The notes below the pieces were generated by a model, which was not told where the DNA came from, did no database searches, and worked only from the letters and a program-made list of their open reading frames with translations. A stretch of DNA of 64,000 nt from Alphaproteobacteria bacterium (GTDB taxonomy: Bacteria; Pseudomonadota; Alphaproteobacteria; Rs-D84): NCBI GenBank assembly GCA_017535105.1, contig JAFXUI010000001.1, positions 80,945-144,944 on the forward strand, given 5' to 3'. The translations under genes and the position numbers were made by a program. Shown one piece after another: positions 4,272-55,823 of this stretch. How positions within the stretch are numbered: the stretch's first letter is position 1; every line of letters starts with the position of its first letter.

Positions 4272-4272
4272 A

Positions 4273-9383: not shown

Positions 9384-9409
9384 GAATAACAATTGAAAGG
9401 AGAATGTCG

Positions 9410-14959: not shown

Positions 14960-17380
14960 ATGAACGAATTTTTTAATTATTTTGCCGGTGGTGGATATTC
15001 TATAACCATGACGATTTTGGTTATGGCGGTTATTTTCGTATTTATTGTTTTAATGCTTTATATCCCATCATTGTCGCGCCGCATATTCCCAAGTTTTGGT
15101 TATCGTCATTATGCGAATTATTTGCCGTTCAAAAATGTCTATAATGATAACACGATATCTTTGACCGATGGGTCACTGTTGCGTGTGTATCGTGTGTCTG
15201 GTGTCCAGACCAGTATGCAAGATGACGCGACCCGCGAAAAATTCTTGGATTTACGTGCGCAATTATTTAATCAAATTCGTGATCCAAATGTGACGTTACG
15301 TTTTTACATGGTGCGTGATGCGGCGGCGGATAATGAAAACTATGAATTTGATAATCAGGTTTTACAGGGTATTTATAACAAATGGCGCGCCCAGGGTTTA
15401 CGTATATTTATAAATAATTATTATATTGTGATTTCTGTGGCTGGTGGTGGCGCGCGTGAAAAATTAAATCAATATTGTAATTATATTGAATCAATATTGG
15501 CGGCGTATAAACCAAAGGTATTGAATAATAATACACGTGATAATATGGCGCGATTCTTTGGTCGTATTTTATCACCGATAAGCAAGCCCGCCCCGGTCGT
15601 TGCCGATAATAAAATTGCAGAGGCAGTGACGGTTGACGATGTTATATTTGAACGTGATGGAATTGTCCGCTATGTCAGTGGGGGCGCGCAAATGTTTGCG
15701 GCGGCGTTATCTTTCCGTATATCGCCAGATTATCTGGACGAAGATTTCTTTAATTCAATATCAACCATACAAACAGAAATGATTTGTATGAATGGTTTTC
15801 ATATCATGGGAACGGCGGATATTGAATCAACATTTCGTCAACGTAAATCAACCGCAGACGAAAATGAAACATCTACATTGGCCCAGGTGTCGGCGGCGCA
15901 AAGTGCGATGGACGAAAACATTTCTGGAAACCAGAGTTTGGTAAATTACTATCCGCTGTTTGTGATATTTGGTGCGACCGTTGAAGAATTAAACAAGTAT
16001 GTTGATGAGTTCAAAAAGATATCGGCATCGTTTGGTGTATCGCCAATTGTTGAAACATTTGCGTCAAAGGTTTCTTGGTTTTCACAAATACCGGGATTTG
16101 ATGTTTTCCCACGCAGTTTCAAGTTGCTGTCAAAAACGGCGGCGGTTTGTATCCCGATGTCCAGCACGCCACGCGGAATTGAAAATTCTGATTGGGGTCC
16201 GGGACCATTGGTTGTTTTCCCAACGGCCCAGGGTACACCATATATGTTCCAATTCCATGTTTCAGACAAACCAACCGCGGTGGGACATACATTAACAATC
16301 GGTCCAACCGGTGGTGGTAAAACAACTTTGTTCAGTTTTTTAATCGCGCAATCGTTGCGTCACCCAAAACTGAAAGCGTTTTTCTTTGACAGAAACAAGG
16401 GTGCCGAAATATTCACTTTGGCGGTTGGTGGAAAATATATCACTATGCGGGGCAAGGAAAAGAATACCGATCCAATGGCGAAAACTTTTGAAACGCGGTT
16501 GAATCCATTAAAGATGCCGGATACACCGGAAAATCGCGCGTTTTTGCGTCGTTGGTTTGCGATTATATCGGGACAAAATGACGCGGCGTCCGCCGATGAA
16601 ATTGCACGTGCGGTTTCGGTCAACTTTGATTATTTGTCGGACAAGGATAGGGTGCTGAAAAACCTTTGGGAAAGTTGTTTTTCGTCCAGTGGCGAAATGC
16701 GTGCGCCATTAAAGAAGTGGGTTGACCCATTACAATATGGCGATATGTTTAATGAAGACAGCGATACACTTGATTTGGGTGCGCGTCTTACAACATTTGA
16801 TTTTACCGATATTTTACAGGACGAGGTTTTATCGCCTGCGGTTATTTCATACATATTGCACCGTATAAACACGACAACGGTATCTGGTGGAAATCCATCA
16901 CTTATTATGATTGATGAAACAGCGCCAATGTTGGAAAACAAAATGTTCCGCGATAACTTTATTGCCGGCTTACAAGAAGGGCGCAAAAACCGTCAGGCAT
17001 ATATGGTCGCGTTCCAGCGCGCAAACGTTTTGGATAAACTTGGTATTGGTGATGTTGTTCGTGGCCAGGCGCAAACGGTATTATTCTTCCGTAATCCAGC
17101 CGCCGATGCGGGCGACTATGCACATTGGAATCTGAACCCGTTGGAAATGGCATTTATCCAGGGCAAGGCATATCCAAACTTGAAACGTGCGGTATTGTTG
17201 TCGCGTCCGGTAAATGGGGAATCGGTCATATTAAATACGGAACTTGGTGGGCTGGGCAATTTATTGCGCCTGTTTGAATCGGGTCGTCCATCGGTATTAC
17301 TGGCCGAAGAATTGTATAAAATGTATGGCGCGAATTTTGTTGCGGAATATCTGAAAAAGCAATCTGGCGGAAATGTTTAA
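14960..17380 (+). CDS. virB4: Type IV secretion system ATPase VirB4/TrbE/CagE family
   Basis: 806 aa; Walker A GPTGGGKTTL, Walker B LIMIDETAP; size and architecture of VirB4. Confidence 0.9.
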   Translation: MNEFFNYFAGGGYSITMTILVMAVIFVFIVLMLYIPSLSRRIFPSFGYRHYANYLPFKNVYNDNTISLTDGSLLRVYRVSGVQTSMQDDATREKFLDLRAQLFNQIRDPNVTLRFYMVRDAAADNENYEFDNQVLQGIYNKWRAQGLRIFINNYYIVISVAGGGAREKLNQYCNYIESILAAYKPKVLNNNTRDNMARFFGRILSPISKPAPVVADNKIAEAVTVDDVIFERDGIVRYVSGGAQMFAAALSFRISPDYLDEDFFNSISTIQTEMICMNGFHIMGTADIESTFRQRKSTADENETSTLAQVSAAQSAMDENISGNQSLVNYYPLFVIFGATVEELNKYVDEFKKISASFGVSPIVETFASKVSWFSQIPGFDVFPRSFKLLSKTAAVCIPMSSTPRGIENSDWGPGPLVVFPTAQGTPYMFQFHVSDKPTAVGHTLTIGPTGGGKTTLFSFLIAQSLRHPKLKAFFFDRNKGAEIFTLAVGGKYITMRGKEKNTDPMAKTFETRLNPLKMPDTPENRAFLRRWFAIISGQNDAASADEIARAVSVNFDYLSDKDRVLKNLWESCFSSSGEMRAPLKKWVDPLQYGDMFNEDSDTLDLGARLTTFDFTDILQDEVLSPAVISYILHRINTTTVSGGNPSLIMIDETAPMLENKMFRDNFIAGLQEGRKNRQAYMVAFQRANVLDKLGIGDVVRGQAQTVLFFRNPAADAGDYAHWNLNPLEMAFIQGKAYPNLKRAVLLSRPVNGESVILNTELGGLGNLLRLFESGRPSVLLAEELYKMYGANFVAEYLKKQSGGNV

Positions 17381-20554: not shown

Positions 20555-20631
<77 letters not shown>

Positions 20632-20644
20632 ATAAGTGCTGTTT

Positions 20645-20672
20645 ATTATATACTAAAATCACCAAGTGTCAA
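20645..20672 (-). promoter_or_regulatory. Consensus sigma70 promoter for tRNA-fMet (TTGACA-16 nt-TATAAT on minus strand)
   Basis: Reverse complement catTTGACActtggtgattttagtaTATAATaaacagcacttat then tRNA 5' end. Confidence 0.65.
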
Positions 20673-20706
20673 ATGAAATGTGGAAAATATGTCCGTGCTT
20701 TTCGGT

Positions 20707-20746
20707 TGTCATCCCCGCGAAGGCGGGGATCCAGTGCCCCGCAGGG
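20707..20746 (+). repeat. Palindromic interspersed repeat, copy D
   Basis: tgtcatccccgcgaaggcggggatccagtgccccgcaggg. Confidence 0.7.
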
Positions 20747-20799
20747 AATTTATAATTGTGTCGCGACAAAGTCGCGTGCATTGTTATTTACTGTCTGCG

Positions 20800-20835
20800 A
20801 CGCAGTGGATACCGGCCTTCGCCGGTATGACGAGT
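20800..20835 (-). repeat. Palindromic interspersed repeat, diverged copy E (inverted)
   Basis: Reverse complement cactcgtcataccggcgaaggccggtatccactgcg; same architecture with CCGGCGAAGGCCGG core. Confidence 0.5.
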
Positions 20836-20909
20836 GTGATGTATTCTTTGTACCGGTCACTAACGTCGCACCCTTGCATATTGCTTTTTTTATTGCTAAA
20901 CTTGTGAAC

Positions 20910-21713
20910 ATGGCAAAAAAGAAAAGTTTGTTTAGACGGGTATGGAAGGGGTTTTGGGACATTGTTTTAAGCATTGGGCTTATACAATGGCTGATTGCCG
21001 TACTTATTGCGACACCAATTTGGTTTGTATATTTGACAAGTCGTATAAAAATTACGGGCTATGAAATATTTAAGCAATACCGGAAAAAACCGGCCATATT
21101 TGTATTCTGGCATGGGCGCAGTATGATGTTATCGCCAATTATTGCGGTTGGTGGTATGCGGGCGTATGCAATATCCAGCAAGCATCACGATGGGCGCATA
21201 ATGGCCAAGGTGCAACGTTTATTCGGTTTGCGTCCGATTTACGGGTCAACAACGGACGGTGGGTTGTCGGTGTTGCGTGGCGGTTTGCGCGTGTTGGCGG
21301 ACGGTCGCTATTCGTTGTGTATTTCACCAGACGGGCCGGGGGGACCATCGTTGCGTGTTCAAGACGGCGCGTTATATTTTGCTAAAATGAGTGGTGCGCC
21401 AATTATTCCAGTGTGTTATTCTGCATCGCGTGCATGGTTTATGAATCGCTGGGACCGGTATTTAATTGTGAAACCTTTTTCACGTGTAAAGTGTGTTTTG
21501 GGTGATCCGATTTTTGTGCCACGTCGTGCGACTGAAACAGAGTTTAATGAAATCAAAAATTCGCTTGAAAAATATATGGTTGATATGGTCCATAAAATGG
21601 ACGGCGAATTTAATCATAAAATGGTAGAGCAAGATTACAAGGCGGGTCGGTTCAAGCGGGAATTGCGTGCGGCACGTGCCGAACGCCGCAATAAAAAGAA
21701 AGGGTTGATATAA
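20910..21713 (+). CDS. DUF374-domain lysophospholipid acyltransferase-family protein (classically linked to kdtA/lpxK)
   Basis: 267 aa from ATG 20910 (ORF-track N-extension overlaps the tRNA and repeats and is spurious); TM anchor then IFVFWHGRSMM...; TAATG overlap with lpxK. Confidence 0.7.
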   Translation: MAKKKSLFRRVWKGFWDIVLSIGLIQWLIAVLIATPIWFVYLTSRIKITGYEIFKQYRKKPAIFVFWHGRSMMLSPIIAVGGMRAYAISSKHHDGRIMAKVQRLFGLRPIYGSTTDGGLSVLRGGLRVLADGRYSLCISPDGPGGPSLRVQDGALYFAKMSGAPIIPVCYSASRAWFMNRWDRYLIVKPFSRVKCVLGDPIFVPRRATETEFNEIKNSLEKYMVDMVHKMDGEFNHKMVEQDYKAGRFKRELRAARAERRNKKKGLI

Positions 21714-22615
21714 TGAAAACGCCATATTGGTTTATGCATAAAACTTTGCTGGCTTTTATTTTGGTGCCGTTTTCATGGGTATATTATGGCGTATCGCGCG
21801 CGGTGTTCGGTGTTCGTAAAATGCGTGCCTATAAATCAAAACGACCGGTTATTTGTATTGGAAATATTTTGGCGGGTGGGGTTGGTAAAACACCAATTGT
21901 TCGTGAAATTGCGACATATTTAGACGCACCGGTGGTTATGCGTGGATACAAGAAATCGGCGCATACAGGAAATATTGGGGACGAGGCGACAATGCTTTCG
22001 CGTGCCGGTTTAATTGTTCATACGGGTAATCGCAAAAGTAATGTTATGCTGCTGGATCGTCAGCGCGATAAATCGCCAATAGTTATGGACGATGGATTAC
22101 AAAACCCAACGGTTGAAAAAAATATTTCAATAGTGGTGTTTGATGAATCTATTGGTTTTGGAAATGGGTTTTTATTGCCGGCGGGTCCATTACGCGAACC
22201 GCGTGATCATATTGCAAATGCCGATGCGATTATGATTGTACGTTCCAAGAATCGCAAAAAAAACTTTACGATTCCAACGGGTGTGCCGGTATTCTATGCG
22301 ACAAATCAAACCATATCGCCGTATGATGAAAAAACACCGATTGTTGCGTTTGCGGGAATTGGTTACCCAAAAAAGTTTTTTGCGTGCTTAAATAACGTTG
22401 TTGCGCGTCGCGCGTTTCCAGACCATTATCAGTACACAGATGCCGATATTGAAAAACTGTTAAAGTTGGCGAAAAGCAAAAAAGCAAAATTAGTCACGAC
22501 TGAAAAAGACTGGGTGCGGTTGCCAGAAAGCGTACGTGATAAAATAAAGTTCGCGACACTGAAAACAGAGATTCAAGGCGACTTTTGGAATTGGTTGGGG
22601 GAGAAATTAAAATGA
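21713..22615 (+). CDS. lpxK: Tetraacyldisaccharide 4'-kinase
   Basis: 300 aa; CIGNILAGGVGKTP P-loop signature of LpxK. Confidence 0.9.
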   Translation: MKTPYWFMHKTLLAFILVPFSWVYYGVSRAVFGVRKMRAYKSKRPVICIGNILAGGVGKTPIVREIATYLDAPVVMRGYKKSAHTGNIGDEATMLSRAGLIVHTGNRKSNVMLLDRQRDKSPIVMDDGLQNPTVEKNISIVVFDESIGFGNGFLLPAGPLREPRDHIANADAIMIVRSKNRKKNFTIPTGVPVFYATNQTISPYDEKTPIVAFAGIGYPKKFFACLNNVVARRAFPDHYQYTDADIEKLLKLAKSKKAKLVTTEKDWVRLPESVRDKIKFATLKTEIQGDFWNWLGEKLK

Positions 22616-23553
22616 CCACATTATTAAAAACTATAAAATTAGTGGGCAAAGGTATTCATTCGGGGTTGTCAGTTGAAATAAAAATCAAACCGTCAAAAAA
22701 GCCGGGTATTTTCTTTCAGCGCGTTGACATCGCAGGGTCAAAACCGATGCCCGCAAAATACGATAATGTGGGTGAGGCGAAAATGCGCAACACCACGATT
22801 GGCGCTGTATCGGGCGCGCATGTACAAACAGTTGAACATTTAATGGCGGCATTATTTATTTGTGGTGTGGACAGTGCGTTGGTTGAAATAAATGGGGCGG
22901 AAACACCAATTATGGACGGCAGTGCGTTTTTGTTCATAAATGAAATTATGCGGGCCGGTGTGACGCGCGGAAAAATGCGTAAGATTATTGTTAAAAAGCC
23001 GGTTGTCGCCTATACACGTGAAGTGCGACGTGAATTACCAAAACTGTTTCGGTTGAAATTATGGATTGCTGACAAAATCGCGCATCGTAAAAGTGATGGT
23101 TTTGTAAAACTTTCGCCAAATGATGGAAAATCATTGGATATAACTGCGACACTGGTTTATCCAGAAAAAATTATTGGTTCACAAACATATTCTTATGCTT
23201 TTGACGGAACAAAAAAGTCTGCGAACACGTTTATAAAGCAAATTGCACGTGCGCGTACTTTTGGAAAATATTCCGAATGGGAATACCTTAAAAAACACGG
23301 TATGGGGCGGGGCGCAGACGAAACAAATGTAATCGCGCTGAATAACGCAGGTGATGGAACATTAAACAAACTTATGTGGCCGGACGAATTTGTGCGACAC
23401 AAGATAATTGATGCGGTTGGCGATATGGCAACATCGGGTGGTATCATTTGTGGAAAACTGGAATCATATAAGGGAAGTCATGCACTGAATAATATCGTGT
23501 TGAAAAAGTTGTTCAGTGATGTTGAAAATTATGATATAGTTGAAGAGAAATAA
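22612..23553 (+). CDS. lpxC: UDP-3-O-acyl-N-acetylglucosamine deacetylase
   Basis: 313 aa from ATG 22612 (GGGAGA RBS): MTTLLKTIKLVGKGIHSG...HVQTVEHLMAAL..., LpxC hallmarks; ATGA overlap with lpxK. Confidence 0.9.
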   Translation: MTTLLKTIKLVGKGIHSGLSVEIKIKPSKKPGIFFQRVDIAGSKPMPAKYDNVGEAKMRNTTIGAVSGAHVQTVEHLMAALFICGVDSALVEINGAETPIMDGSAFLFINEIMRAGVTRGKMRKIIVKKPVVAYTREVRRELPKLFRLKLWIADKIAHRKSDGFVKLSPNDGKSLDITATLVYPEKIIGSQTYSYAFDGTKKSANTFIKQIARARTFGKYSEWEYLKKHGMGRGADETNVIALNNAGDGTLNKLMWPDEFVRHKIIDAVGDMATSGGIICGKLESYKGSHALNNIVLKKLFSDVENYDIVEEK

Positions 23554-26028: not shown

Positions 26029-27669
26029 ATGAAAAATCAAGAAGACGATTTTTTTGGTAATGTTGGCGCACAAGATCAAAAACCATCTGTTCCAGCAGGG
26101 TTGGAAAACGCCGAAAATAAAGATATCATAGAATATCTGTTTTCCAACGGTAATCGTCTGTTGACTGCGACGGGTGGGACAATGGAATTGTCCCGTGATA
26201 TGCAGAGTTTCATTGCCTATTTTTCGGGTGGTGAAATTATTATTTCACGTACACACCAATATGATGGTCGTGTGTTGGCGTTCATAGATTTATTAAAACG
26301 GCGTTCACATGTTGTACGCAAACCATTCTATTCTGATTTGGGTTTGGTTTCTGGTATTTATAAGGCATACGAAGGGCACATCGGCAGTAGTGCGCGTGGC
26401 GGTCACGAATATGACAACCAGATGCAGAAAGATTTTGTCGATATTATCGCCAAAGCAGCAGCTCAAAAAGTTTCGGATATTCATATTGAGGTTGGTGACC
26501 AAACAACAATATATTTCCGTATTGATGGCAGTATGCAACCAGTATTGGAATATAACGCGGCGTGGGGTGAAGCTTTTGTTCGTGCCGCATTTGCATCGGC
26601 GGATATGTCGAACGCGAACTATGCGCAAAATGAATATCAATCTGCACAAAAAGACGGTCGTACACCGTTGCGCGGAACGCGTGATTTATATTTGCCGGCC
26701 GGTATTTTAAGTATTCGTATGCAGTTTAATCCGATTGCATTTGGGTCGCGTTATGTTGTCATGCGACTGTTATACGATAACCCAACCGAAGGAATTAAAA
26801 CCGAACAGGAATTCAGTCCGTATGAACAAAAATTATTGATGCGTATGCGTTCATTTCCAACGGGTTTGGTAATTGTTGCGGGTCCAACAAGTTCTGGTAA
26901 ATCAACGACATTGGTACGCAATATGTCAATGATGTTAAAGGAACGTAATTATGAAATAAATATGATTACGGTGGAAAATCCTGTTGAACAAAAAATTTTC
27001 GGTGCACACCAAATGCCCGTTACAAACGCAATGAACGAAGAGCAACGTGACGAAGCGTACACCGAAGCATTGGCGGCCGCATTGCGCAGTGACCCCGATA
27101 CATTGATGGTTGGTGAAATTCGAACGCTGGCGGCGGCACAATTAACTTTGCGTGGTGCATTGTCGGGTCACAATGTTTGGACAACATTACATGCTAATTC
27201 GGCAATGGCGGCATTGACGCGACTGCTTGATATGGGTATCGAAAGTTTCAAGTTAAAAGAAGAAACGTTGATGCGTGGTTTAATATCAATGCGTTTATTC
27301 AAAAAGGTTTGTCCGCATTGTCATGAACCTTTGATTAATCACCCAGAAAATCCGGCGTATAAACGTGTTCTGGACGCATTCGGCGAAATAGGATTAAAGC
27401 AAGTGTATATTCGTGGTCCGGGCTGTGATTTGTGTAAAGGCACAGGTACACTGGGGCGTATCAAGGCGGGTGAGGTTATTATTACCAACAGTGAATTTTT
27501 ATCACTTGCGTTGTCGGGTAAAACAGATGAGGCAGTGAAATACTGGCTTGAAGAAATGGACGGTCGTACGTTGAAAGAAGCCGCATCAGAATTGATGTTG
27601 TTGGGTGTAATTAGTGTTGATGAACTGGAACGTTGGGTTGGATTGCTTGACAGACCGGGGGTGTATTAA
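26029..27669 (+). CDS. GspE/PilB-family secretion ATPase (T2SS E / type IVb pilus assembly ATPase; R64 PilQ / BfpD / TcpT-like)
   Basis: 546 aa; Walker A GPTSSGKSTT, Walker B DTLMVGEIR, His box TTLHANSA, tetracysteine CPHC...CDLC zinc motif. Confidence 0.85.
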   Translation: MKNQEDDFFGNVGAQDQKPSVPAGLENAENKDIIEYLFSNGNRLLTATGGTMELSRDMQSFIAYFSGGEIIISRTHQYDGRVLAFIDLLKRRSHVVRKPFYSDLGLVSGIYKAYEGHIGSSARGGHEYDNQMQKDFVDIIAKAAAQKVSDIHIEVGDQTTIYFRIDGSMQPVLEYNAAWGEAFVRAAFASADMSNANYAQNEYQSAQKDGRTPLRGTRDLYLPAGILSIRMQFNPIAFGSRYVVMRLLYDNPTEGIKTEQEFSPYEQKLLMRMRSFPTGLVIVAGPTSSGKSTTLVRNMSMMLKERNYEINMITVENPVEQKIFGAHQMPVTNAMNEEQRDEAYTEALAAALRSDPDTLMVGEIRTLAAAQLTLRGALSGHNVWTTLHANSAMAALTRLLDMGIESFKLKEETLMRGLISMRLFKKVCPHCHEPLINHPENPAYKRVLDAFGEIGLKQVYIRGPGCDLCKGTGTLGRIKAGEVIITNSEFLSLALSGKTDEAVKYWLEEMDGRTLKEAASELMLLGVISVDELERWVGLLDRPGVY

Positions 27670-27670
27670 T

Positions 27671-28741
27671 ATGAGTCGTTTGGACCTTTGGTATGCACGT
27701 TTAGTTTTTCGTATGAATACGGAAAAACGTATGGCGACACTTCGTAAGTTGGCGTCACTGTTGCGTAACGACTTTACATTAATGGACGCATTAAACCGTA
27801 TTGAAATGATTGAATCGCACGGTGGCACAAAACCCAATGAACCGTTCGCGATTGTTATGCGCCAGTGGCAGAAAAACCTTGAACGTGGTATGAGTTTTTC
27901 CGATACGACGCGCGGTTGGTTGCCAGATGATGAAACACTTTTGGTGACAAGTGGTAATATTTCTAATTTGGTTGTTGCACTTGAAAACACAACACGTGTG
28001 GTCGAAGGCGCAGAACGTATCCGCCGTGCTATGCGTAATGCGTTGGCGTACCCGTTGTTTTTGTTAGCATTAACATTTGGTATAATCGTTATGGTTGGAT
28101 TGTACCTTGTTCCGCCATTGATTGAGGTTGCCGGTAACGGTATTATATGGCGTGGTGTTGCCGGTGGCTTGATTTCTTTATCTGACTTTATGGTGGTAAG
28201 TTGGTATTGGTTTGTTATAGGTATGTTCTTGCTGTTCGTGTTTGTCGGTCTGTCTTTGGAAAATTGGTCGGGCCGTTTGCGTGCCAAGTTCGATAAAATA
28301 CCACCATGGAACATTTATAAAATTCGTATATCGGTTGGTTGGTTGATGTCATTATCATCAATGGTTGCGGCGGGTATTACAATGCCGGACGCAATGCGTA
28401 TGTTGGCGGATAATTCAAGCAAGTATTTGCGCGATATATTGGAAGAAACATTACACAATATCGCAAACGGTGAAAACTTGGGCCAGGCATTGTTAAATAC
28501 TGGACGTGATTTTCCAAACTCTGAAATCATCGGTGACTTGATGATTTACGCAGATATGAATGATTTTGATAAAAACTTAACAGCCATAGCCAATGACTAT
28601 CTGAATGATTCTGTGCGCAAAATGGAAGCAATATCGAATGTGTTAAACAGTATCGGTATTTTAATGGTTTCTGGAATAATCGCATGGGTGGTTTTGGGAA
28701 CGTTCCAGATGCAAGATCAAATCACAGCGGCATTAAGTTAA
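27671..28741 (+). CDS. GspF/PilC-family inner-membrane platform protein
   Basis: 356 aa from ATG 27671 (TAATATG overlap with the ATPase gene); two cytoplasmic repeats and three TMs, typical GspF architecture. Confidence 0.8.
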   Translation: MSRLDLWYARLVFRMNTEKRMATLRKLASLLRNDFTLMDALNRIEMIESHGGTKPNEPFAIVMRQWQKNLERGMSFSDTTRGWLPDDETLLVTSGNISNLVVALENTTRVVEGAERIRRAMRNALAYPLFLLALTFGIIVMVGLYLVPPLIEVAGNGIIWRGVAGGLISLSDFMVVSWYWFVIGMFLLFVFVGLSLENWSGRLRAKFDKIPPWNIYKIRISVGWLMSLSSMVAAGITMPDAMRMLADNSSKYLRDILEETLHNIANGENLGQALLNTGRDFPNSEIIGDLMIYADMNDFDKNLTAIANDYLNDSVRKMEAISNVLNSIGILMVSGIIAWVVLGTFQMQDQITAALS

Positions 28742-47456: not shown

Positions 47457-47852
47457 ATGGAATACATATTAAATAATATTGATGAAACACGTGCGTGGGC
47501 GCGCGAATTTGCGAAAACTTTACATGCACCGGTTTGTGTTGCGTTGCACGGTGATTTGGGTATGGGAAAGTCCGAGATTGCACGTACAGTAATACAAACA
47601 CTGCGTGGTGCAGATACGATTGTGCCAAGTCCGACATTTACAATTGTACAATCATATGATGGTATTTCGCATTTCGATTTATACCGCATAAATGATAGGT
47701 CAGAATTGGTTGAAATTGGTTTGCCGTATGCAATTGCAAATGACATTACACTTATTGAATGGCCCAATATTGCGTCCGATATGTTGCCCGAAAATACGAT
47801 ACATGTTTATATCACAGAACACGGTTCCGGCCGCAAAATTGTTGTAAAATAA
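47457..47852 (+). CDS. tsaE: tRNA threonylcarbamoyladenosine biosynthesis protein TsaE (YjeE)
   Basis: 131 aa; VALHGDLGMGKSEIAR P-loop, typical TsaE. Confidence 0.85.
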   Translation: MEYILNNIDETRAWAREFAKTLHAPVCVALHGDLGMGKSEIARTVIQTLRGADTIVPSPTFTIVQSYDGISHFDLYRINDRSELVEIGLPYAIANDITLIEWPNIASDMLPENTIHVYITEHGSGRKIVVK

Positions 47853-47854
47853 AA

Positions 47855-47876
47855 GCCGGCATTTACCGGCTTTTTT
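47855..47876 (+). terminator. Bidirectional terminator (CCGGCATTTACCGG family)
   Basis: AAAAGCCGGCATTTACCGGCTTTTTTATT. Confidence 0.7.
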
Positions 47877-49650
47877 ATTGTTTTTTTAACAGTGATTGTA
47901 CGGCGACCGGAAAATCATTACTGCGGGCAAGGTATGCGCCCGATATCAATAAATCAGCTCCAGCTTCCCAACAACGTTGCGCTGTTTTTTCGTTTATTCC
48001 GCCGTCCACAGAAATTGTGAATTTTAATCCATATTTTTTACGTGTCGCCGCCAAGACAGAAATTTTATGTAAGCATGCCGGCATAAATTCTTGACCCGTC
48101 GCACCGGGTTCAACGGCCATTACCATCACTTCATCTAAATCACGCAAAATAGGTTTCAATATAGTTGGTGATGTATCTGGATTTAACGCAACACCCGCGC
48201 GCCGCCCAGATGCTTTGATTGTGCGTATCGCGCTTTTTACACCTGATGTGTTTGTTGAAACAATTACCGTATCGGCACCCGCCGCAATTGCGTCTGCCGC
48301 CCATGCGTTCGGACTTTCGGTCATTAAATGTACGTGCAGATGGGCGGTTGTTCGTGCGCGAATTGCGCGCAGTTGTTCAATACTGCCCGTGATTTTATTT
48401 ACATATAATCCATCCATTATATCAACGTGCAACATTGATATACCCGCCGCATCGAAAGTCGTGTATGTGGTTGCATCGTTCATGTTAAAGCACATCGTGC
48501 TTGGCAAAATCGGAACAAATATATGACGTTTTTTGGGCTTCTTATGAAACAATTTTAATATGCCGTCCATGCGATGTGAAATGCGTTCATTGCGTGCGAT
48601 AATTTTTGCCCGCGCATCGGCAGTTTGATTCCATATATGTTCACTTAAAGATTGGACAATCGCATCAACGTGTGCGCTTTCGGTTGGTACACCAAATGAA
48701 CTTGATATAAAGTCAACAACCCCATCGGCATCTGATGCGCCGCCCGTCACGATAATTTTTGTTGGTTGATGTTTTTCGATTGTCTGGGCTGCTGCGTATT
48801 TAATGTCTTCGATAATATTTGTCATATATGGCACGACAATATCATTTATATCGGCACGTGAAAAATCATATGCAACATCGGCGGGGGCAAAACGGTCGGT
48901 TTCTTTTGGTAACATGGTGAACACGGCACGTTTAATACGGTCGGCATCTATAAACGGTACATCAAACTTTTCAGATATGGCCGTTGTTATATTTGTGCCA
49001 CCATTTTTTGTTTTATAGTGCCAAAGGGGGCCACGGTCTGACCAAATGGACGCGGTTGTGAACATCGCGCCCAAATCAATAAACATTATTGTTTCGTGTG
49101 GCTTATGAAATGCAGAGTTTAATACAAATTGTGAATCATAAAAACCATTTGGCTGGATAAGCGCGTGACGCAAGAATGTATTTATTTCCTCAACACTGGC
49201 ACGGTTATAAAATATTGCGCCGAATACAGAAATCAATTGATTATCAATATGTCCAATTGGGGTCAACATATTATGCATATGTGGCGATGTATATTGTAAT
49301 GGAATAATATGCATCGCAAAGTGGCCGTCGGGTGTTGTGATTTGTGCCGCCTGGTGTCGGACATCGCCAGCGGTTATTTTGTGTTCGTTCGACCATATTG
49401 TGTTTTTCGCAACAATGCTGAATACAGATTCACCAAAATTGCCAGTGATATATGCGTTATCAAAATGGCGACCGATTTGTGATTCCAGTTCATCAACCAC
49501 AGATTTTATCGCATAAACAGTATCTGTTGATTCGGCGACAAACATTGCCGACTTTACAATTCGCGCATTACGAACGCGGTGCGCAATACCATGTACCGCC
49601 GATGATCCAATATCCAAACACAAAAAAGCAGAATCAATAAGATGGTTCAT
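47875..49650 (-). CDS. ftsA: FtsA-like actin-family ATPase (about 370 aa) continuing in frame into a complete ribulose-phosphate 3-epimerase domain (about 220 aa); apparent FtsA-Rpe fusion
   Basis: N-part LCLDIGSSAVHGIA (phosphate 1), IMFIDLGAMFTTASIW (phosphate 2), IIVTGGASDADGV (adenosine); basic ILKLFHKKPKKRH tail; C-part ILPS...MLHVDIMDG...VMAVEPGATGQEF...ISVDGGIN = Rpe signatures; positioned after ftsQ where ftsA then ftsZ are expected. Confidence 0.7.
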   Translation of the reverse strand: MNHLIDSAFLCLDIGSSAVHGIAHRVRNARIVKSAMFVAESTDTVYAIKSVVDELESQIGRHFDNAYITGNFGESVFSIVAKNTIWSNEHKITAGDVRHQAAQITTPDGHFAMHIIPLQYTSPHMHNMLTPIGHIDNQLISVFGAIFYNRASVEEINTFLRHALIQPNGFYDSQFVLNSAFHKPHETIMFIDLGAMFTTASIWSDRGPLWHYKTKNGGTNITTAISEKFDVPFIDADRIKRAVFTMLPKETDRFAPADVAYDFSRADINDIVVPYMTNIIEDIKYAAAQTIEKHQPTKIIVTGGASDADGVVDFISSSFGVPTESAHVDAIVQSLSEHIWNQTADARAKIIARNERISHRMDGILKLFHKKPKKRHIFVPILPSTMCFNMNDATTYTTFDAAGISMLHVDIMDGLYVNKITGSIEQLRAIRARTTAHLHVHLMTESPNAWAADAIAAGADTVIVSTNTSGVKSAIRTIKASGRRAGVALNPDTSPTILKPILRDLDEVMVMAVEPGATGQEFMPACLHKISVLAATRKKYGLKFTISVDGGINEKTAQRCWEAGADLLISGAYLARSNDFPVAVQSLLKKQ

Positions 49651-49660
49651 TTTGTTGCTT

Positions 49661-50350
49661 TTATTTTATTAGTACACGTGCCGCATCACGCATATCAATT
49701 ACTTTTATATTCTTGGATAAAATATTCTGTTTTTCGTTCATTGTGTGTAAACCGTGAATCGCGCCAATCGGGTTGTTTTCGGGCAACATAATCGTAATTC
49801 CGTCATTTGTAACGATGTTCCAGCGGCGATTTTCAATCCATTCCATATAGTTTATTTTGTCGGCCAAAACGTGTGCCGCAGATGTGATTTCGGTGATGTT
49901 GTCGGGTAATGTTCCACGAAACACGATTGCGGTTGAATCATGCGCATCAAGTGGTGTATGAACAATGGTTCCATCACCAGATAATGGATAAAAATATTCA
50001 CCGTCGGTCCATTGTGCAACCGCGCGATACAGGCGCACATGTATACGTAATGTGCCATTTGGCATACGGCGTGTAGCGGAATATTGAACGGTTGGAACCT
50101 CATCAATACGGCGGTTTAAGGAATCAATGCTTAATGAATTTGTACGTGCGCCCAATGCCGATTTTGCAACCATTTCAATTTGGGACAAATCATCACCGTC
50201 TGTGGCATCGGCCGCGATAGAAATGTTATGAATGGTCGCAAGTTTTCCGTGACCCAATCCGGTCATAATTATTCGGGTCGCAAAATACACCCCAAACGCA
50301 ATTGCGCACACAAAATACAGCCAAAACAACAAGGAACGTTTCATGGCCAT
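49661..50350 (-). CDS. ftsQ: Cell division protein FtsQ (POTRA domain)
   Basis: 229 aa; N-terminal TM MAMKRSLLFWLYFVCAIAFGVYFATRI, POTRA-like region, ...RDAARVLIK end. Confidence 0.75.
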   Translation of the reverse strand: MAMKRSLLFWLYFVCAIAFGVYFATRIIMTGLGHGKLATIHNISIAADATDGDDLSQIEMVAKSALGARTNSLSIDSLNRRIDEVPTVQYSATRRMPNGTLRIHVRLYRAVAQWTDGEYFYPLSGDGTIVHTPLDAHDSTAIVFRGTLPDNITEITSAAHVLADKINYMEWIENRRWNIVTNDGITIMLPENNPIGAIHGLHTMNEKQNILSKNIKVIDMRDAARVLIK

Positions 50351-50382
50351 AATTATATCATAAAATTACGTGATTACAAAAA

Positions 50383-50763
50383 TTATCTTGCCCGAAGCAA
50401 ATATCCGCGCCGAAACATACATTTACGGTACGAGCCAACCGACTTTGACGTGGTGTTGCGTGGAACAGACAGTAAGCACCGTTGTCCAATGTCACGGTAT
50501 TCATTTGATTGGAACGTGACCCACAGACCGTCCCAGTCGGGCATCATACTGCTCTGATTTGGGGCAAGCAGTTTCGCGATTCTTGACCGGGTTTGATACG
50601 GTTTTGTTTCAATGCCCAGGCATGCCTTGTGATCGCGGACGAATTGTTCGGTGGTTACCGCCTCATTTTCCCAATTCAGAATAGTTGCGTCATCAAGTGA
50701 CCCACTGTTGATTGATGCACATGCCCCCAAAAGCAAAAATAAACATAAAAATTTTATTCTCAT
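50383..50763 (-). CDS. Lipoprotein of unknown function
   Basis: MRIKFLCLFLLLGACAS lipobox. Confidence 0.5.
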   Translation of the reverse strand: MRIKFLCLFLLLGACASINSGSLDDATILNWENEAVTTEQFVRDHKACLGIETKPYQTRSRIAKLLAPNQSSMMPDWDGLWVTFQSNEYRDIGQRCLLSVPRNTTSKSVGSYRKCMFRRGYLLRAR

Positions 50764-50833: not shown

Positions 50834-51166
50834 TTGCACATGGCATTATCGGTTCAGAACTTTATAAAGTTGGCAAATTATTACAACCAGACAACGATGG
50901 TAATGTCGGCAATTTGCGTGCAAAAGGGCGGAATTCCAATGGAAAATTATGTCGGCCGTATGTATGCCGCCGATGTTTTAGAGTTTATTGTTGAATATGC
51001 ACGGCGGTTAAAATCTGATTCAAAAATCGCGATACCGGCGGACGTAGCAAAAGTGATTGAACGGTTTAATGTCGAATATGAACGGGTAAAAAATTTAACA
51101 ACCCCGTCACAAAAACCAATTTATGAGATGACTTTGGAAGAGTTTGAAAAGTTTATGAATATCTGA
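50834..51166 (+). CDS. Hypothetical protein (110 aa)
   Basis: ORF only. Confidence 0.4.
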   Translation: MHMALSVQNFIKLANYYNQTTMVMSAICVQKGGIPMENYVGRMYAADVLEFIVEYARRLKSDSKIAIPADVAKVIERFNVEYERVKNLTTPSQKPIYEMTLEEFEKFMNI

Positions 51167-51182
51167 AACAAGAGGGAAACAG

Positions 51183-52520
51183 ATGATAAAGCGTATAAGG
51201 TTTTTAATTTTTGGTCTTGTTATTATCGGCCTGTGCGGGTGTCAGATGGTAAAGCAAAACCAAGAAGTTGAACCAGAATATGATACGGTCACGGTTGTGA
51301 ACAATTTGGTCATTGACGAAAACTCTGTGCCAATCTTTCCGAAAAAAGCCGCGCTGACCACCGATACGGCACGCCGTTTTTCAATTGAATTGCCAAAACG
51401 GTGCAGTGTTGATTGGAATAATCAAAATGTTGTTTCTGTGGTGCCCGAAGAAAAAATAGAAATAGTGCGCTTGGATATGGGCGATGAATTGCCGGCACTG
51501 AAAGTTTCTGATTATGAATTTAAGCAGTTGACGGTGCGTCAAGCACTGGAAAAACTGTTGGACGGTACAGACATTGATGTTGTCGAAGATAGTACAATGA
51601 CCGAAAAAATATCGGGAACAATATCTTCGGGCGCATTGTCGGACGCGGTTGAATTAATGGCAAAAATGGGTCATGTGTATTATTCATATGACGAAGATGA
51701 GGGTGCAATTCATTTAAATCATCGCGCAAAGTGGCTTATTAAAATGCCACAAAATGAAACGATAATTATGGCATTGCTGGACGCGATGCATGGTGCCGAT
51801 ATGCGTAATTTGCTTGTTGACTGGAATGACAAGACAATTGGATTTGAGGGGAATTATCAAACTGAACGCGAAGTGTCCAAAATAATTGCGGATATTGCGT
51901 CCAAGAAATATATGATTGCGTGGGATATAGATGTGTACCGCGTATATCCACGTACAGACAATCCGATTATCTGGATGAATTTGTTCCCGGCATTTGGTGA
52001 CAAGAATATAAAAATGTCTATCCCAGGTGTTGTTGGACGTACGGTTGTTGTTGGACCGGAAATAAACACAAAAACATTACAAGAATTTATGTATCAACAG
52101 GCAAACGTTGTTCTGATATCCCAGGGGACATTTGCAATTCCAAATGGTTGGCAATCACGATTTGATATTGGCCAATGTGGCAAAGAAGAAAGATTGGAAA
52201 CCGATTTGATTATTGGTGCAACAGCGAAATATGGCGACTATGGTGGCCGTGACAAAATTGATGCGAAAATCGTATTGCGTACATCAAATGGCGAATTGTC
52301 TTCATTTACAATTCCGTCCAGTATTGGTGACAATTACATAATCGTTGGTATTCCGACACACTCGTTCGTAACAACACCGGAAACGTTGATAAGTCCGTTT
52401 GCAGAACTTGTTGTGTTTATGTCGCCACGTTTGATATCGATTGTTGATGCGGCAACGGCTAAAAAATCTGGGACGGGTGCGCTGGTCGGTGATGCGTTAC
52501 GGGCGTTCTTGAACGAATAG
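51183..52520 (+). CDS. Outer-membrane lipoprotein, possibly a divergent secretin-like protein (STN/N0-like segment and C-terminal ELVVFMSPRLI motif); directly upstream of lolC/E-lolD
   Basis: Signal and lipobox MIKRIRFLIFGLVIIGLCGC; QLTVRQALEKLLDGTDIDVVED resembles secretin/TonB N-terminal STN domain; C-terminal ...NYIIVGIP...AELVVFMSPRLISI resembles secretin C-terminal motif; weak overall. Confidence 0.3.
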   Translation: MIKRIRFLIFGLVIIGLCGCQMVKQNQEVEPEYDTVTVVNNLVIDENSVPIFPKKAALTTDTARRFSIELPKRCSVDWNNQNVVSVVPEEKIEIVRLDMGDELPALKVSDYEFKQLTVRQALEKLLDGTDIDVVEDSTMTEKISGTISSGALSDAVELMAKMGHVYYSYDEDEGAIHLNHRAKWLIKMPQNETIIMALLDAMHGADMRNLLVDWNDKTIGFEGNYQTEREVSKIIADIASKKYMIAWDIDVYRVYPRTDNPIIWMNLFPAFGDKNIKMSIPGVVGRTVVVGPEINTKTLQEFMYQQANVVLISQGTFAIPNGWQSRFDIGQCGKEERLETDLIIGATAKYGDYGGRDKIDAKIVLRTSNGELSSFTIPSSIGDNYIIVGIPTHSFVTTPETLISPFAELVVFMSPRLISIVDAATAKKSGTGALVGDALRAFLNE

Positions 52521-52523
52521 GGT

Positions 52524-53783
52524 ATGAATATGTTTTCCAAAATCGAAAAGAAAATTGCATTTCGTTATTTGGCGATGAAAAAGCGCGGATTTGGTTCCGT
52601 TGTTTCGTGGGTGTCGTTGATTGGTATAACATTGGGGGTTGCGACACTTATTGTTGTTATGTCGGTTATGGGTGGATTTCATGACACATTACTTTCACGT
52701 ATTGTCGGAATGAACGGGCATGTTGTTGTTTATCATCAAGATGGCGCGATAAAAGATTATGATTTCTTGATCGAAAAAATAGCCCAGAACAAAATTGTGA
52801 ATTCATACACAACGTCAATCGTTCCGATTGCCGAAGGCCAGGTTATGGCGACCGCAAATGGTAATAATACCGGCGCGATGATACGTGGTATTCGTATGTC
52901 TGATTTGGCCCAGAAAGCATCAACTGGGACACGTATGTATGGAAAACCACTGGACCAGATTGCAGACGGCGAATTGGTTGCGGGCGCATCACTGACACGT
53001 GCGTTAAACGTCACAATGGGTGATAATATATCGTTGGTTTCGGCAAATGGCGCGACCCCAACACCATTTGGAACAATGCCACGTATTATGGCATATCCGG
53101 TTATGACATCGTTTTTTATGGGAATGTATGAGTATGATTCTGGATATATCTTTATGCCGCTTGAAACCGCGCAAAAATATCTGAACATTGGTGATGCGGT
53201 GACACATATTGATTTATTCCTTAAAAATCCCGAAGATACAAGTCGCGTTTTGGACGCGTTGGTGCGTTTATTACCGGACGGTTTTATTGTGCGCGATTGG
53301 CGTGATTTAAATCGTGGGTTTGTTGGTGCGTTACAAGTTGAATCAAACGTAATGTTTTTGATTCTTTTGCTTATCGTGATTGTTGCGGCATTTAATATCG
53401 TGTCAAGTTTGGTTATGTTGGTAAAAGATAAAAATAAAGACATCGCGGTGTTACGCACATTTGGTGTTTCGCGTAAATCAATGATGAAGATATTTATTTT
53501 GTCGGGAACCAGTATTGGTGTAATTGGTGCGTTCTTTGGAATGATATTTGGAATCATTGTCGCAATTTATATCGAACCAATAAGACAATTTTTCCAATGG
53601 GCAACTGGGCGCGATTTGTTCCCAGCGGAATTATATTATTTGTCGGAATTGCCGTCCAAGTTGGTGGCAAGCCAGGTTATCGGCATTGTTGTCTTGGCAA
53701 TTGCGTTGGCGTTTTTGGCAACATTGTACCCGGCGTGGAAGGCGGCAAACACAGATCCAGTCGAAGTATTGCGTAATGAATAG
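52524..53783 (+). CDS. lolE: Lipoprotein-releasing system permease LolC/LolE (FtsX family)
   Basis: 419 aa; MacB/FtsX topology; followed by lolD. Confidence 0.85.
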   Translation: MNMFSKIEKKIAFRYLAMKKRGFGSVVSWVSLIGITLGVATLIVVMSVMGGFHDTLLSRIVGMNGHVVVYHQDGAIKDYDFLIEKIAQNKIVNSYTTSIVPIAEGQVMATANGNNTGAMIRGIRMSDLAQKASTGTRMYGKPLDQIADGELVAGASLTRALNVTMGDNISLVSANGATPTPFGTMPRIMAYPVMTSFFMGMYEYDSGYIFMPLETAQKYLNIGDAVTHIDLFLKNPEDTSRVLDALVRLLPDGFIVRDWRDLNRGFVGALQVESNVMFLILLLIVIVAAFNIVSSLVMLVKDKNKDIAVLRTFGVSRKSMMKIFILSGTSIGVIGAFFGMIFGIIVAIYIEPIRQFFQWATGRDLFPAELYYLSELPSKLVASQVIGIVVLAIALAFLATLYPAWKAANTDPVEVLRNE

Positions 53784-53791
53784 GGGTTAAA

Positions 53792-54502
53792 ATGGCAAGT
53801 ATTCTGAATTCTTTATCAAGGGTTAAACGCGGTGACGTGGTTATGTCGGTGCGCGATATTAAAAAGACCTTTATTGAAGGAGGACAACCATTACACATCT
53901 TACGCGGGGGCGGGTTTGATTTGCACCGTGGGGAAATTATCGCATTGGTTGGGCCATCGGGTTCTGGTAAATCGACATTATTACAATGTGTTGGGTTGCT
54001 GGATAAACCAACATCGGGCAGTATTATTATTTCCGGTACCCCGGTTCAGAAAATGAGTGAAGATGCACGTACCATTGTTCGCCGTAAAAAGATTGGCTTT
54101 GTATATCAACGTCATAATTTATTATCAGATTTTACGGCGGTTGAAAATGTTGAATTGCCAATGTTGGCAAATGGTGTTGAACCCGATATCGCACATCGGC
54201 GTGCATTAAAGTTGTTGCGTGCGGCGGGTGTTGCACATCGTGCGGAACATGTTCCTGGTGAAATGTCTGGTGGTGAGCAACAGCGTACGGCGGTTGCGCG
54301 TGCCTTGGCGAACGAGCCAGAAATATTACTTGCGGACGAACCAACGGGCAGTCTGGACCCGGCGCATGCGACCGCGGTATTTGATCAATTACTTGCGTTG
54401 GTGCGTAAGAATAATATGGCAATGTTGTTCGTTACACACGATATGGGATTGGCAACACGCGCCGACCGAAAAATTACCATTGCAAATGGTATAGTAAAAT
54501 AG
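53792..54502 (+). CDS. lolD: Lipoprotein-releasing system ATP-binding protein LolD
   Basis: Walker A GPSGSGKSTLL, signature MSGGEQQRTAVARAL, Walker B LLADEPTGSLD. Confidence 0.9.
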   Translation: MASILNSLSRVKRGDVVMSVRDIKKTFIEGGQPLHILRGGGFDLHRGEIIALVGPSGSGKSTLLQCVGLLDKPTSGSIIISGTPVQKMSEDARTIVRRKKIGFVYQRHNLLSDFTAVENVELPMLANGVEPDIAHRRALKLLRAAGVAHRAEHVPGEMSGGEQQRTAVARALANEPEILLADEPTGSLDPAHATAVFDQLLALVRKNNMAMLFVTHDMGLATRADRKITIANGIVK

Positions 54503-54537
54503 TTACAATATATAAAAAGAGGACAGAGGAGAGAGAA

Positions 54538-55110
54538 ATGAAAAAGCAAACAAAATCAAAAAAAGCCAGTTCAACCAAGATGGCGAAAGCAATGACGCAC
54601 GCGGTTGTTGTGCACAGTCGTCGCCAGCGTATATATGCGTTTATTGCATTGGCTGGTCTGTTTTTATGTGGTTTGTTTGTTGGTATGGACGTTAAATCGC
54701 GTTCATGTAATATGCCACAAAATGCCGAACCGATTTCCGTAGACGCAATGAATGTTAATGGACCCGAAGATGTTTGTGGCGAAGTCGAACGTTTGTTGGC
54801 GCGTCATTTGCCGGCGGCATCGGATAATGTCGAAGATCGTATTGAACGTGCCAAGATTTATACCAGTATGGCTGAACGCGGTTGCGTTGAAAATATGGAT
54901 ACATATGTTGAATTAGCAGCCCAAGAATTAGATATTGCGCGCGCAATTGATGATGATAATTTTAATCGCCAAGAAACAATCGATATTGTGGAAACATATA
55001 AACGCTTGAATATGAAAGCGGCCGCACAAGAAATTTTCGAAAAGGCGAAAAAATTAACCGACCCAGCGATTGACTTTATTATCCAGGTTGAAAAAATTAT
55101 AAATGAATAA
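54538..55110 (+). CDS. Membrane-anchored hypothetical protein (190 aa)
   Basis: Basic N-terminus, TM IYAFIALAGLFLCGLFVGM, acidic C-domain. Confidence 0.5.
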   Translation: MKKQTKSKKASSTKMAKAMTHAVVVHSRRQRIYAFIALAGLFLCGLFVGMDVKSRSCNMPQNAEPISVDAMNVNGPEDVCGEVERLLARHLPAASDNVEDRIERAKIYTSMAERGCVENMDTYVELAAQELDIARAIDDDNFNRQETIDIVETYKRLNMKAAAQEIFEKAKKLTDPAIDFIIQVEKIINE

Positions 55111-55127
55111 ATAAAAAGGAAAGCAAA

Positions 55128-55823
55128 ATGAAATTGCGGATATTGCTTTTGTGTACATTTGCACTGATTGGAAATGCATTTGCAGACGACGGTGCAAAAA
55201 TTATGGAACGCAAAACGTGCGAGCAGATAAATGGTGAAATCGCATATTTGTCGGGTCTGGACAGTTTAAGTGCAGATGAACAAGCGCAATTGAAGCAATT
55301 GAATCAACAACAACGTTCCTATTGTACGACCAAGGGTGGTGGTCGTCGTGCAATTGCGCGTTCGATGCCATCGCAAGGTACCGCAGAATCAAACCAAATG
55401 ATAATGATAACATCGGACGTGCTGTCGGAATATATCGCGACCAAAAAATCAAATTGTGAAAAGTTGGGCGCGGAAATGGAAAAATTAGCATCTGATACGA
55501 CCAAGGCATATTTGGTTACGGAAATGCACCGCTATTATGATGTTGATTGTGTTGACCACAAAGATGCGGCCGGCACGCCAGCGGCGGTTACAGAAACTGG
55601 CTCTGTGGCGGTGGCTGCCGCGGCGACACCAACCAAGACCGATGAAGAAATCGCGGCTGAATTTGACGCAAATTTGGCGGCGGGGCTTTGTGGTGACGGA
55701 TCAAAACCAAGTCGTTTTGGTTGCTGTGCGGGTGAAACCTTTAAAGATTTGGGTGATTTAGGATTTGCGTGCTGTCCACGTACGGGAAATGTATGCTATC
55801 CGCCAGTAACACCGATAATGTAG
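55128..55823 (+). CDS. Secreted Cys-containing protein of unknown function
   Basis: Signal peptide MKLRILLLCTFALIGNAFA; C-terminal GLCGDGSKPSRFGCCAGE...FACCPRTGNVCYPP. Confidence 0.55.
   Translation: MKLRILLLCTFALIGNAFADDGAKIMERKTCEQINGEIAYLSGLDSLSADEQAQLKQLNQQQRSYCTTKGGGRRAIARSMPSQGTAESNQMIMITSDVLSEYIATKKSNCEKLGAEMEKLASDTTKAYLVTEMHRYYDVDCVDHKDAAGTPAAVTETGSVAVAAAATPTKTDEEIAAEFDANLAAGLCGDGSKPSRFGCCAGETFKDLGDLGFACCPRTGNVCYPPVTPIM

Follow-up and report, generated by a model that had tools for sequence, protein, structure and literature searches.

Canonical FtsA proteins end in an amphipathic helix that targets them to the membrane, and a free C-terminal position of this helix is thought to be required for the membrane seating of FtsA and for the organization of the division ring. 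Several metabolic enzymes are known to regulate cell division, among them UgtP of B. subtilis, OpgH of E. coli and the Caulobacter proteins GdhZ and KidO. Ribulose-phosphate 3-epimerases (Rpe) are obligate oligomers, which form dimers or hexamers. The gene described here joins FtsA and Rpe in one polypeptide. It is located on a stretch of 64,000 nucleotides, hereafter called the window, from an alphaproteobacterium of the lineage Rs-D84 (GenBank assembly GCA_017535105.1, contig JAFXUI010000001.1, positions 80,945 to 144,944 of the forward strand) and consists of a single open reading frame (ORF) of 591 codons, ftsA::rpe, directly downstream of ftsQ. A reading of the window from its sequence only, which is referred to as the sequence-only reading, had described an FtsA-like protein that continues in frame into a full Rpe, and had offered two explanations for it, a genuine and very unusual fusion or a stop codon lost through an indel.

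The N-terminal half of the fusion shares with the solved FtsA structures of T. maritima (1E4G/4A2A), V. maritimus (7Q6I) and E. coli (7Q6D) the overall fold including the 1C (SHS2) region, the DxG, DxG and GG motifs, the genomic place after ftsQ and an amphipathic basic helix behind the core. However, sequence identity to these structures is only 13-16%, the tail, which is C-terminal in known FtsA proteins, is internal and followed by an enzyme domain of 211 amino acids, and ftsZ is not the next gene. The C-terminal half has the complete barrel and all four metal-binding and catalytic residues of the S. pyogenes Rpe 2FLI; in contrast to free Rpe, it lacks its own start codon and its strand β-1 continues directly from the FtsA tail, and in contrast to cytosolic Rpe, the domain would be tethered, the FVPN and PGFGGQ motifs are changed and the score lies below the TIGR01163 cutoff. 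With UgtP, OpgH, GdhZ and KidO, of which the latter two are alphaproteobacterial precedents, the fusion has in common that an enzyme of central metabolism would be physically present at the early division machinery. Those enzymes, however, are separate proteins that bind FtsZ reversibly, whereas here the enzyme is covalently linked to FtsA and a regulatory function is hypothetical.

The fusion recurs throughout its lineage. A search of 5.8 billion clustered proteins retrieved more than 120 clusters (at the 90% identity level) of 588-596 amino acids, with one of 570 amino acids, at identities from 100% down to 60%, and nearly all of them contain the Pfam domains of FtsA as well as of Rpe. When one genome per species of the GTDB was scanned, 462 candidate stretches emerged; the best 80 of these 462 were examined, and they come from different species-level metagenome-assembled genomes (MAGs) and all match the query from residue 3 to residues 585-591. 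Together with two further contigs and the window, 83 genes were available for comparison, and the fusion ORF is uninterrupted in all of them (588-598 codons). The alignment across the junction is almost gap-free, and the residues F378, P380, P383 and S384, which belong to strand β-1 of the barrel, are invariant or nearly so. The ratio of non-synonymous to synonymous substitution rates (dN/dS; Nei-Gojobori method, 266-334 informative sequence pairs) is 0.094 for the FtsA part, 0.32 for the tail (residues 341-377) and 0.069 for the Rpe part; by this measure, all three segments are under purifying selection, and the value for the tail argues that the linker is translated in this frame and is itself under selection. 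Because the open frame is shared by all 83 genes, homologues are fused even at 24-50% identity and the junction is constrained, a 1-nt assembly error as well as a private stop loss can be excluded as the cause of the long ORF, and the genuine fusion, one of the two explanations offered from the sequence, is borne out. An out-of-frame TAA and a TTG codon (L367) are indeed present at the junction, as had been pointed out; the suggestion that the TTG could serve as the start of a separate rpe gene was abandoned, since most orthologues lack a start-type codon at the corresponding position, which is present in only 8 of 81.

Carriers of the fusion are assigned to Candidatus Enterousia or to uncultured Alphaproteobacteria or 'Rickettsiales' and originate from the guts of humans, ruminants, horses and chickens; one of them is a circular MAG of 958,618 bp (OZ007020.1). 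In a published genome study (PMC12306168), Enterousia is assigned to the GTDB order Rs-D84, whose members are reported to have genomes of 0.75-1.0 Mb, to lack most biosynthesis and to possess a non-oxidative pentose-phosphate pathway, which includes Rpe and lacks transaldolase; FtsA, FtsZ and cell division are not mentioned in that publication. The age of the fusion was approached by a full HMMER scan of 1.84 billion representatives at 50% identity with the N-terminal 372 residues as the query. Fragments aside, the clusters closest to the FtsA half are proteins of 552-623 amino acids with identities down to 24%, and ordinary FtsA proteins of 390-450 amino acids first appear at E values of about 1e-10 (22-27% identity). 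The Pfam Rpe domain is present in eight of ten deep relatives tested; of the other two, P0126 (430 amino acids) is cut by a contig end and P0226 is a long FtsA protein with no Rpe domain. Pairwise identities of the two halves correlate, with r = 0.76 for 81 sequences and r = 0.72 for 15 deep members, which argues that the two halves have descended together from one ancient fusion event. As judged from these comparisons, the fusion arose once and long ago. In the public annotation of NCBI and JGI, fusion proteins of 570-620 amino acids, including the window protein (P0001) and its relatives, are designated 'ribulose-phosphate 3-epimerase' only, and no paper describing an FtsA-Rpe fusion was found in full-text literature searches. 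Both domain families are well known, and it is their architecture that is unusual.

The order of domains that had been read from the sequence, in which a complete FtsA-type fold leads through a basic amphipathic-like tail into a complete Rpe barrel within one ORF, agrees with the profile searches and the predicted structure. The AlphaFold2 model, for which 24 homologues were used, reaches a mean predicted local distance difference test score of 84.9 and consists of an actin-type fold up to about residue 343, a helix (residues 344-367), a disordered basic segment (residues 368-380) and a triosephosphate isomerase (TIM) barrel from residue 381 onwards. The 1C (SHS2) region, at around residues 75-162, forms β-α-β elements in the model, with a loop of low confidence at residues 122-138; the predicted fold is of the actin/HSP70 type, with 1C (SHS2) in place of 1B. 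When the N-terminal half is compared to the PDB using Foldseek, the top match is V. maritimus FtsA (7q6i_B; E 6e-20, TMt 0.71, where TMt is the TM-score normalized to the target), followed by FtsA of E. coli, T. maritima and S. aureus, and the FtsA set as a whole reaches TMt values of 0.61-0.71 over 355-388 columns. The nucleotide-binding motifs D13-x-G15, D192-x-G194 and G303-G304 are invariant in all 81 orthologues and degenerate in some deep relatives. Among the profiles, the NCBIfam model TIGR01174 matches residues 41-337 with model positions 46-355 of 371 (E 9e-17; 61.2 bits, cutoff 175.85), the Pfam model FtsA (PF14450) reaches 25.8 bits (E 1.5e-5; cutoff 31.8), and the Pfam model SHS2_FTSA (PF02491) has no match in the window protein. 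P0152, the least diverged of the fusions, reaches 165 bits with TIGR01174 (E 2.5e-48) and passes the gathering thresholds of both SHS2_FTSA and Pfam FtsA, and the nearest unfused relatives are all above the TIGR01174 equivalog cutoff. The gene also occupies the place of ftsA in the division and cell wall (dcw) cluster, directly after ftsQ, and in one related locus (L083) the order is ftsI-ftsQ-fusion-rpmB. Residues 1-343 are therefore best explained as the fast-evolving FtsA orthologue of this lineage; given the scores below the cutoffs, this assignment is based on the fold, on the position of the gene and on transitive homology.

In the model, the helix of residues 344-367 contains an amphipathic stretch and is followed by a disordered polybasic segment (KKPKKRH). 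Across the 81 sequences, the median hydrophobic moment of the best window of 11 residues within the aligned positions 350-377 is 0.70, corresponding to the 98th percentile within the protein, and the median net charge of positions 364-377 is +6. The family consensus of the tail reads ..RW..R..RI.KIFHRKPKKR.., and a similar composition, a pattern of W/F/I plus K/R, is found at the C-termini of the nearest unfused FtsA relatives. The segment of about residues 344-380 is presumed to be the remnant of the C-terminal membrane-targeting sequence of FtsA, which has become internal. The tail would bind the membrane, and the anchor is thus likely to sit between the two domains, with the barrel starting around 10 residues later.

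The assignment of the C-terminal half is supported by PF00834, which matches residues 381-587 (E 3e-46; 157.7 bits, cutoff 21.1), and by NF004076 (178.8 bits, cutoff 165); this match and that of TIGR01174 provide the domain borders for which the sequence-only reading had recommended profile alignments. The motifs ILKLFHKKPKKRH, ILPS, HVDIMDG, VMAVEPGATGQEF and ISVDGGIN, which the sequence-only reading had quoted, are all located within the 591-residue ORF. In a phmmer comparison with S. pyogenes 2FLI (E 2e-40), residues 382-587 align to residues 7-214 of the 220-residue chain with 36% identity, and Foldseek superimposes the C-terminal half on 2fli_A with a TMt of 0.92 and a root-mean-square deviation of 1.4 Å; the model is that of a complete (β/α)8 barrel. 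H408, D410, H441 and D549 align to H34, D36, H67 and D176 of 2FLI (numbering counted from the printed alignment), which we take to be the metal ligands and acid/base catalysts, and none of these four residues varies among the 81 orthologues. The Rpe half thus looks catalytically active in the clade to which the window belongs.

Outside this clade, the conserved sites have been lost in parts of the family. In the sublineage of P0134 and P0271 (L088:10001-11770 and L091:5415-7187), which has a GC content of 25% and is represented by at least nine full-length variants on contigs of up to 198 kb, the ORF is intact (589-590 amino acids); of the four Rpe metal ligands, three are replaced (H408Y, D410T and D549C), the PGxxGQ phosphate loop is gone, and the DxG and GG motifs of FtsA are lost as well. 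For the single pair of sequences available from this sublineage, dN/dS is 0.36 in the FtsA-like half and 0.20 in the Rpe-like half. Thin as this evidence is, it suggests that the two-domain scaffold itself may be useful. In P0143, P0150 and P0151 (L086 and L090), the Rpe catalytic residues are kept, the phosphate-1 aspartate is changed to tyrosine and the phosphate-2 aspartate to asparagine or histidine, which suggests that nucleotide handling by FtsA was lost in part of the family.

The explanation that we regard as probable is that of a real, anciently fixed gene fusion, which gives rise to one bifunctional and probably membrane-tethered FtsA-Rpe polypeptide of 591 amino acids; the invariance of both the FtsA motifs and the Rpe catalytic residues in the Enterousia set makes a bifunctional protein the best reading. 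Its origin could be pictured as follows: ftsZ would have left its position behind ftsA, rpe would have come to lie there, and the stop codon of ftsA would then have been lost in the common ancestor of the Rs-D84/Enterousia-like clade and the fusion fixed under strong genome streamlining. In the resulting protein, the N-terminal half would act as FtsA and tie the division machinery to the inner membrane, and the Rpe half would supply epimerase activity for the truncated non-oxidative pentose-phosphate pathway while being held at the membrane or at the division site. It is tempting to speculate that the Rpe domain may in addition cross-link or bundle FtsA protomers, since Rpe enzymes form dimers or hexamers. 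Epimerase activity, an effect on oligomerization and the status of the fusion as the only ftsA and the only rpe of the genome are what we infer for this protein. Several observations weigh against the fusion being a bifunctional FtsA-Rpe enzyme. The FtsA matches of the window protein to TIGR01174 and Pfam FtsA are below the curated cutoffs, and its own tail is only moderately amphipathic, with a hydrophobic moment of 0.5-0.6. Two motifs of Rpe are altered (FVPN to YVNK and PGFGGQ to PGATGQ), the equivalog model TIGR01163 gives 161.1 bits and stays under its cutoff of 212.6, and a comparable match, also below the cutoff, is obtained with the allulose-6-phosphate 3-epimerase model NF007266 (E 4e-42); the substrate specificity may therefore have shifted. 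The sublineage in which both active sites are destroyed has kept the fusion, so the architecture can be maintained for non-catalytic reasons. Cleavage or internal initiation might also occur. In the 64-kb window, which is the part of the genome that was covered, tblastn searches with each domain found no second ftsA or rpe.

The strongest competitor of a bifunctional protein, which we consider less likely but still worth serious attention, is that the Rpe module has become a structural or regulatory part of FtsA, either an oligomerization hub or a pentose-phosphate sensor that would link division to the carbon status of the cell, for which catalysis is secondary or dispensable; the fusion would then be retained for the effect of the barrel on FtsA and not for metabolism. 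Such a role would account for the intact ORF of P0134 and P0271, in which the Rpe half persists without three of its four metal ligands at a dN/dS of 0.20, and for the fixed length of the tail-to-barrel junction across the family, and it would be in line with the oligomeric nature of Rpe and with the regulation of division by UgtP, OpgH, GdhZ and KidO. In the clade of the window, however, the complete conservation of the catalytic residues and the dN/dS of 0.07 for the Rpe part are as expected for a working enzyme. Moreover, the evidence for dead sites comes from one pair of sequences of a lineage with 25% GC, in which the FtsA motifs are degenerate too, and the protein may be decaying or changing its function there.

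It is rather improbable that the ORF yields two proteins, by internal initiation near the junction or by cleavage within the basic linker. The polybasic linker (residues 368-380) has a predicted disordered structure, start-type codons are found at the aligned position 382 in 54 of 81 orthologues and at M390 in all 81, and a sigma-70-like promoter sequence, TTCACA-17-TAAAAT, is present just upstream of the junction (48580-48552, minus strand). However, M390, the only universally conserved ATG, lies inside the barrel, and initiation at position 382 or 390 would remove part or all of the near-invariant strand β-1 (F378-S384). Promoter-like matches occur in this region at chance level (12 versus 13.3 ± 3.5 expected), and both frame and length of the tail are kept at the protein level among proteins that are 24-50% identical, for which an RNA signal has no need. 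Motifs resembling a Shine-Dalgarno (SD) sequence precede codon 382 in one of 81 orthologues and codon 390 in none, which is a weak test, because an SD-like motif is also missing at the start of the fusion itself and is present in just 18 of the 39 window genes.

Far less credible is that the N-terminal half represents a different ATPase of the actin fold, PilM-like or EutJ-like, with the true ftsA located elsewhere. PilM (2YCH, 5EOX) has a related actin fold and produces weak Pfam and NCBIfam matches and secondary Foldseek matches to the fusion; the Pfam model PilM_2 scores slightly higher than Pfam FtsA in the window protein and exceeds its own cutoff (E 7e-7; 28.9 bits, cutoff 27), and the window encodes an ATPase and a platform protein of the type found in type II secretion systems (T2SS) and type IV pili. 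The PilM structures nevertheless rank below FtsA in Foldseek (TMt 0.51-0.66 versus 0.71), and within the NCBIfam actin family, TIGR01174 is the best model (E 9e-17), with pilM at E 5e-4. In addition, the less diverged members of the family pass FtsA thresholds, the nearest unfused kin are FtsA equivalogs, and the fusion gene always lies after ftsQ, whereas pilM genes are part of pilMNOPQ operons. The idea that two genes were merged by an error of assembly or sequencing, or by a recent stop loss private to this genome, is practically untenable, as it can draw on nothing but the out-of-frame TAA and the TTG, both of which are expected by chance in AT-rich sequence, and has to contend with 83 of 83 independent assemblies, homologues fused down to 24% identity, selection at the junction and the poor conservation of the TTG as a start-type codon (8 of 81 orthologues).

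Coordinates of the ftsQ-ftsA::rpe pair, the segments of the fusion and the adjacent hairpin in the 64-kb window
Feature	Position	Strand	Basis or remark
ftsA::rpe fusion ORF, 591 codons, ATG start	47875..49650	-	ORF list; stop codon at 47875..47877
FtsA domain, residues 1-343, predicted actin/HSP70-type fold	48622..49650	-	AlphaFold2 model, Foldseek, TIGR01174, motif conservation
Tail and linker, residues 344-380	48511..48621	-	Predicted structure, alignment, dN/dS, amphipathicity
Rpe domain, residues 381-591, predicted (β/α)8 barrel	47878..48510	-	PF00834, NF004076, alignments to 2FLI, catalytic residues
ftsQ, 229 amino acids, first gene of the ftsQ-ftsA::rpe pair	49661..50350	-	Pfam FtsQ_DivIB_C, E 3e-9
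GC-rich hairpin flanked by an A-run and a T-run	47851..47874		Between the convergent stops of tsaE and ftsA::rpe

The stop codon of ftsQ and the ATG of the fusion are separated by 10 nt, and the single ORF behind ftsQ, which the ORF list as well as Pfam and NCBIfam confirm, recurs in the relatives: in all related loci for which a gene list was obtained, the gene immediately before the fusion is ftsQ, an arrangement the sequence-only reading had proposed to check. On its 3' side, the fusion is followed by the hairpin and by the convergent genes tsaE and uvrB. The hairpin comprises nine pairs, five of which are G-C, followed by a T-rich tail, and likely functions as a bidirectional terminator, in which case nothing would be co-transcribed downstream of the fusion. 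The gene ftsZ is missing from its expected position in the window, as had been noted, and also in every relative examined, deep ones included, in which ftsZ never lies next to the fusion. The tubulin signature GGGTG[ST]G is absent from all frames of the 64-kb window and likewise from about 1.5 Mb of sequence from 82 related loci and from eight further loci, which are the stretches that the signature scan covered.

SD-like motifs are found upstream of 18 of the 39 window genes and are lacking in front of the fusion (49651-49670), ftsQ (50351-50380) and a gene for 126 amino acids. In ftsQ and the 126-residue gene, a TATAAT box lies within a few bases of the ATG, which is compatible with leaderless transcripts; promoter-like matches are no more numerous in this region than expected by chance. 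The latter gene (50383-50763, minus strand) is located just upstream of ftsQ and has no Pfam match; its product may be a lipoprotein, because the N-terminus resembles a signal peptide with a cysteine (MRIKFLCLFLLLGAC), and a gene of the same size is present at this position in the related loci L086, L088 and L091. Divergently from ftsQ-ftsA::rpe, an operon (50834-55823, plus strand) starts with genes for proteins of 110 and 445 amino acids, the latter without a Pfam match, continues with a LolC/E-like permease (MacB_PCD and FtsX domains) and a LolD-like ATPase of the ATP-binding cassette (ABC) type, and ends with genes for proteins of 190 and 231 amino acids, both without a Pfam match. The core of this operon (proteins of about 107 and about 440 amino acids, permease and ATPase) adjoins ftsQ and the fusion in L086, L088 and L091 as well, where the identity of the fusion is around 25-30%.

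Several other genes of the window concern the cell envelope or secretion. A cluster at 1230-5421 (plus strand) consists of mreC, an ORF of 152 amino acids that is probably mreD, a PBP2-type transpeptidase and a RodA-type protein of the FtsW/RodA/SpoVE family; the elongation machinery is thus present and clustered, and ftsQ and ftsA are split from the rest of the dcw cluster. A DUF374-containing protein of 372 amino acids is encoded upstream of lpxK and lpxC (20595-23553, plus strand). The gene lpxC, which in E. coli comes after ftsZ, is grouped with lipid A genes in the window, and the organism appears to make lipid A. Directly behind dnaG, a position that is occupied by rpoD in many bacteria, lies an ORF of 735 amino acids without a Pfam match at E <= 1e-5 (9404-11611, plus strand). 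Furthermore, the window carries a gene for a type IV secretion ATPase of the VirB4/TrbE type (14960-17380, plus strand) and genes for a T2SS-E type ATPase and a T2SS-F platform protein (26029-28741, plus strand), which indicates that secretion or pilus machinery has been kept in a genome of about 0.9 Mb.

The architecture raises the tentative idea, which we hold to be a less likely reading, that throughout an order of gut Alphaproteobacteria with reduced genomes a TIM-barrel enzyme of central metabolism now serves FtsA, the division anchor, as a permanent module with a structural or regulatory role, which is kept even without its catalytic residues and in a lineage in which ftsZ is not located at the dcw locus. 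If true, this would be the first metabolic enzyme that is built covalently into the divisome. No new biochemical principle is shown by the fusion; its existence would nonetheless surprise specialists of cell division. Since these proteins are annotated as Rpe only, surveys of gene content in these uncultured gut symbionts would list ftsA as absent and count rpe among the usual enzymes of the cytosol. A whole clade, comprising at least 80 species-level genomes and probably several hundred, buries the presumed membrane-targeting helix of FtsA in front of a 24-kDa oligomeric enzyme, an arrangement that persists at identities as low as about 24%, and thereby provides a natural experiment on how much cargo the membrane anchor of FtsA tolerates and on the hard-wiring of metabolism and cell division.

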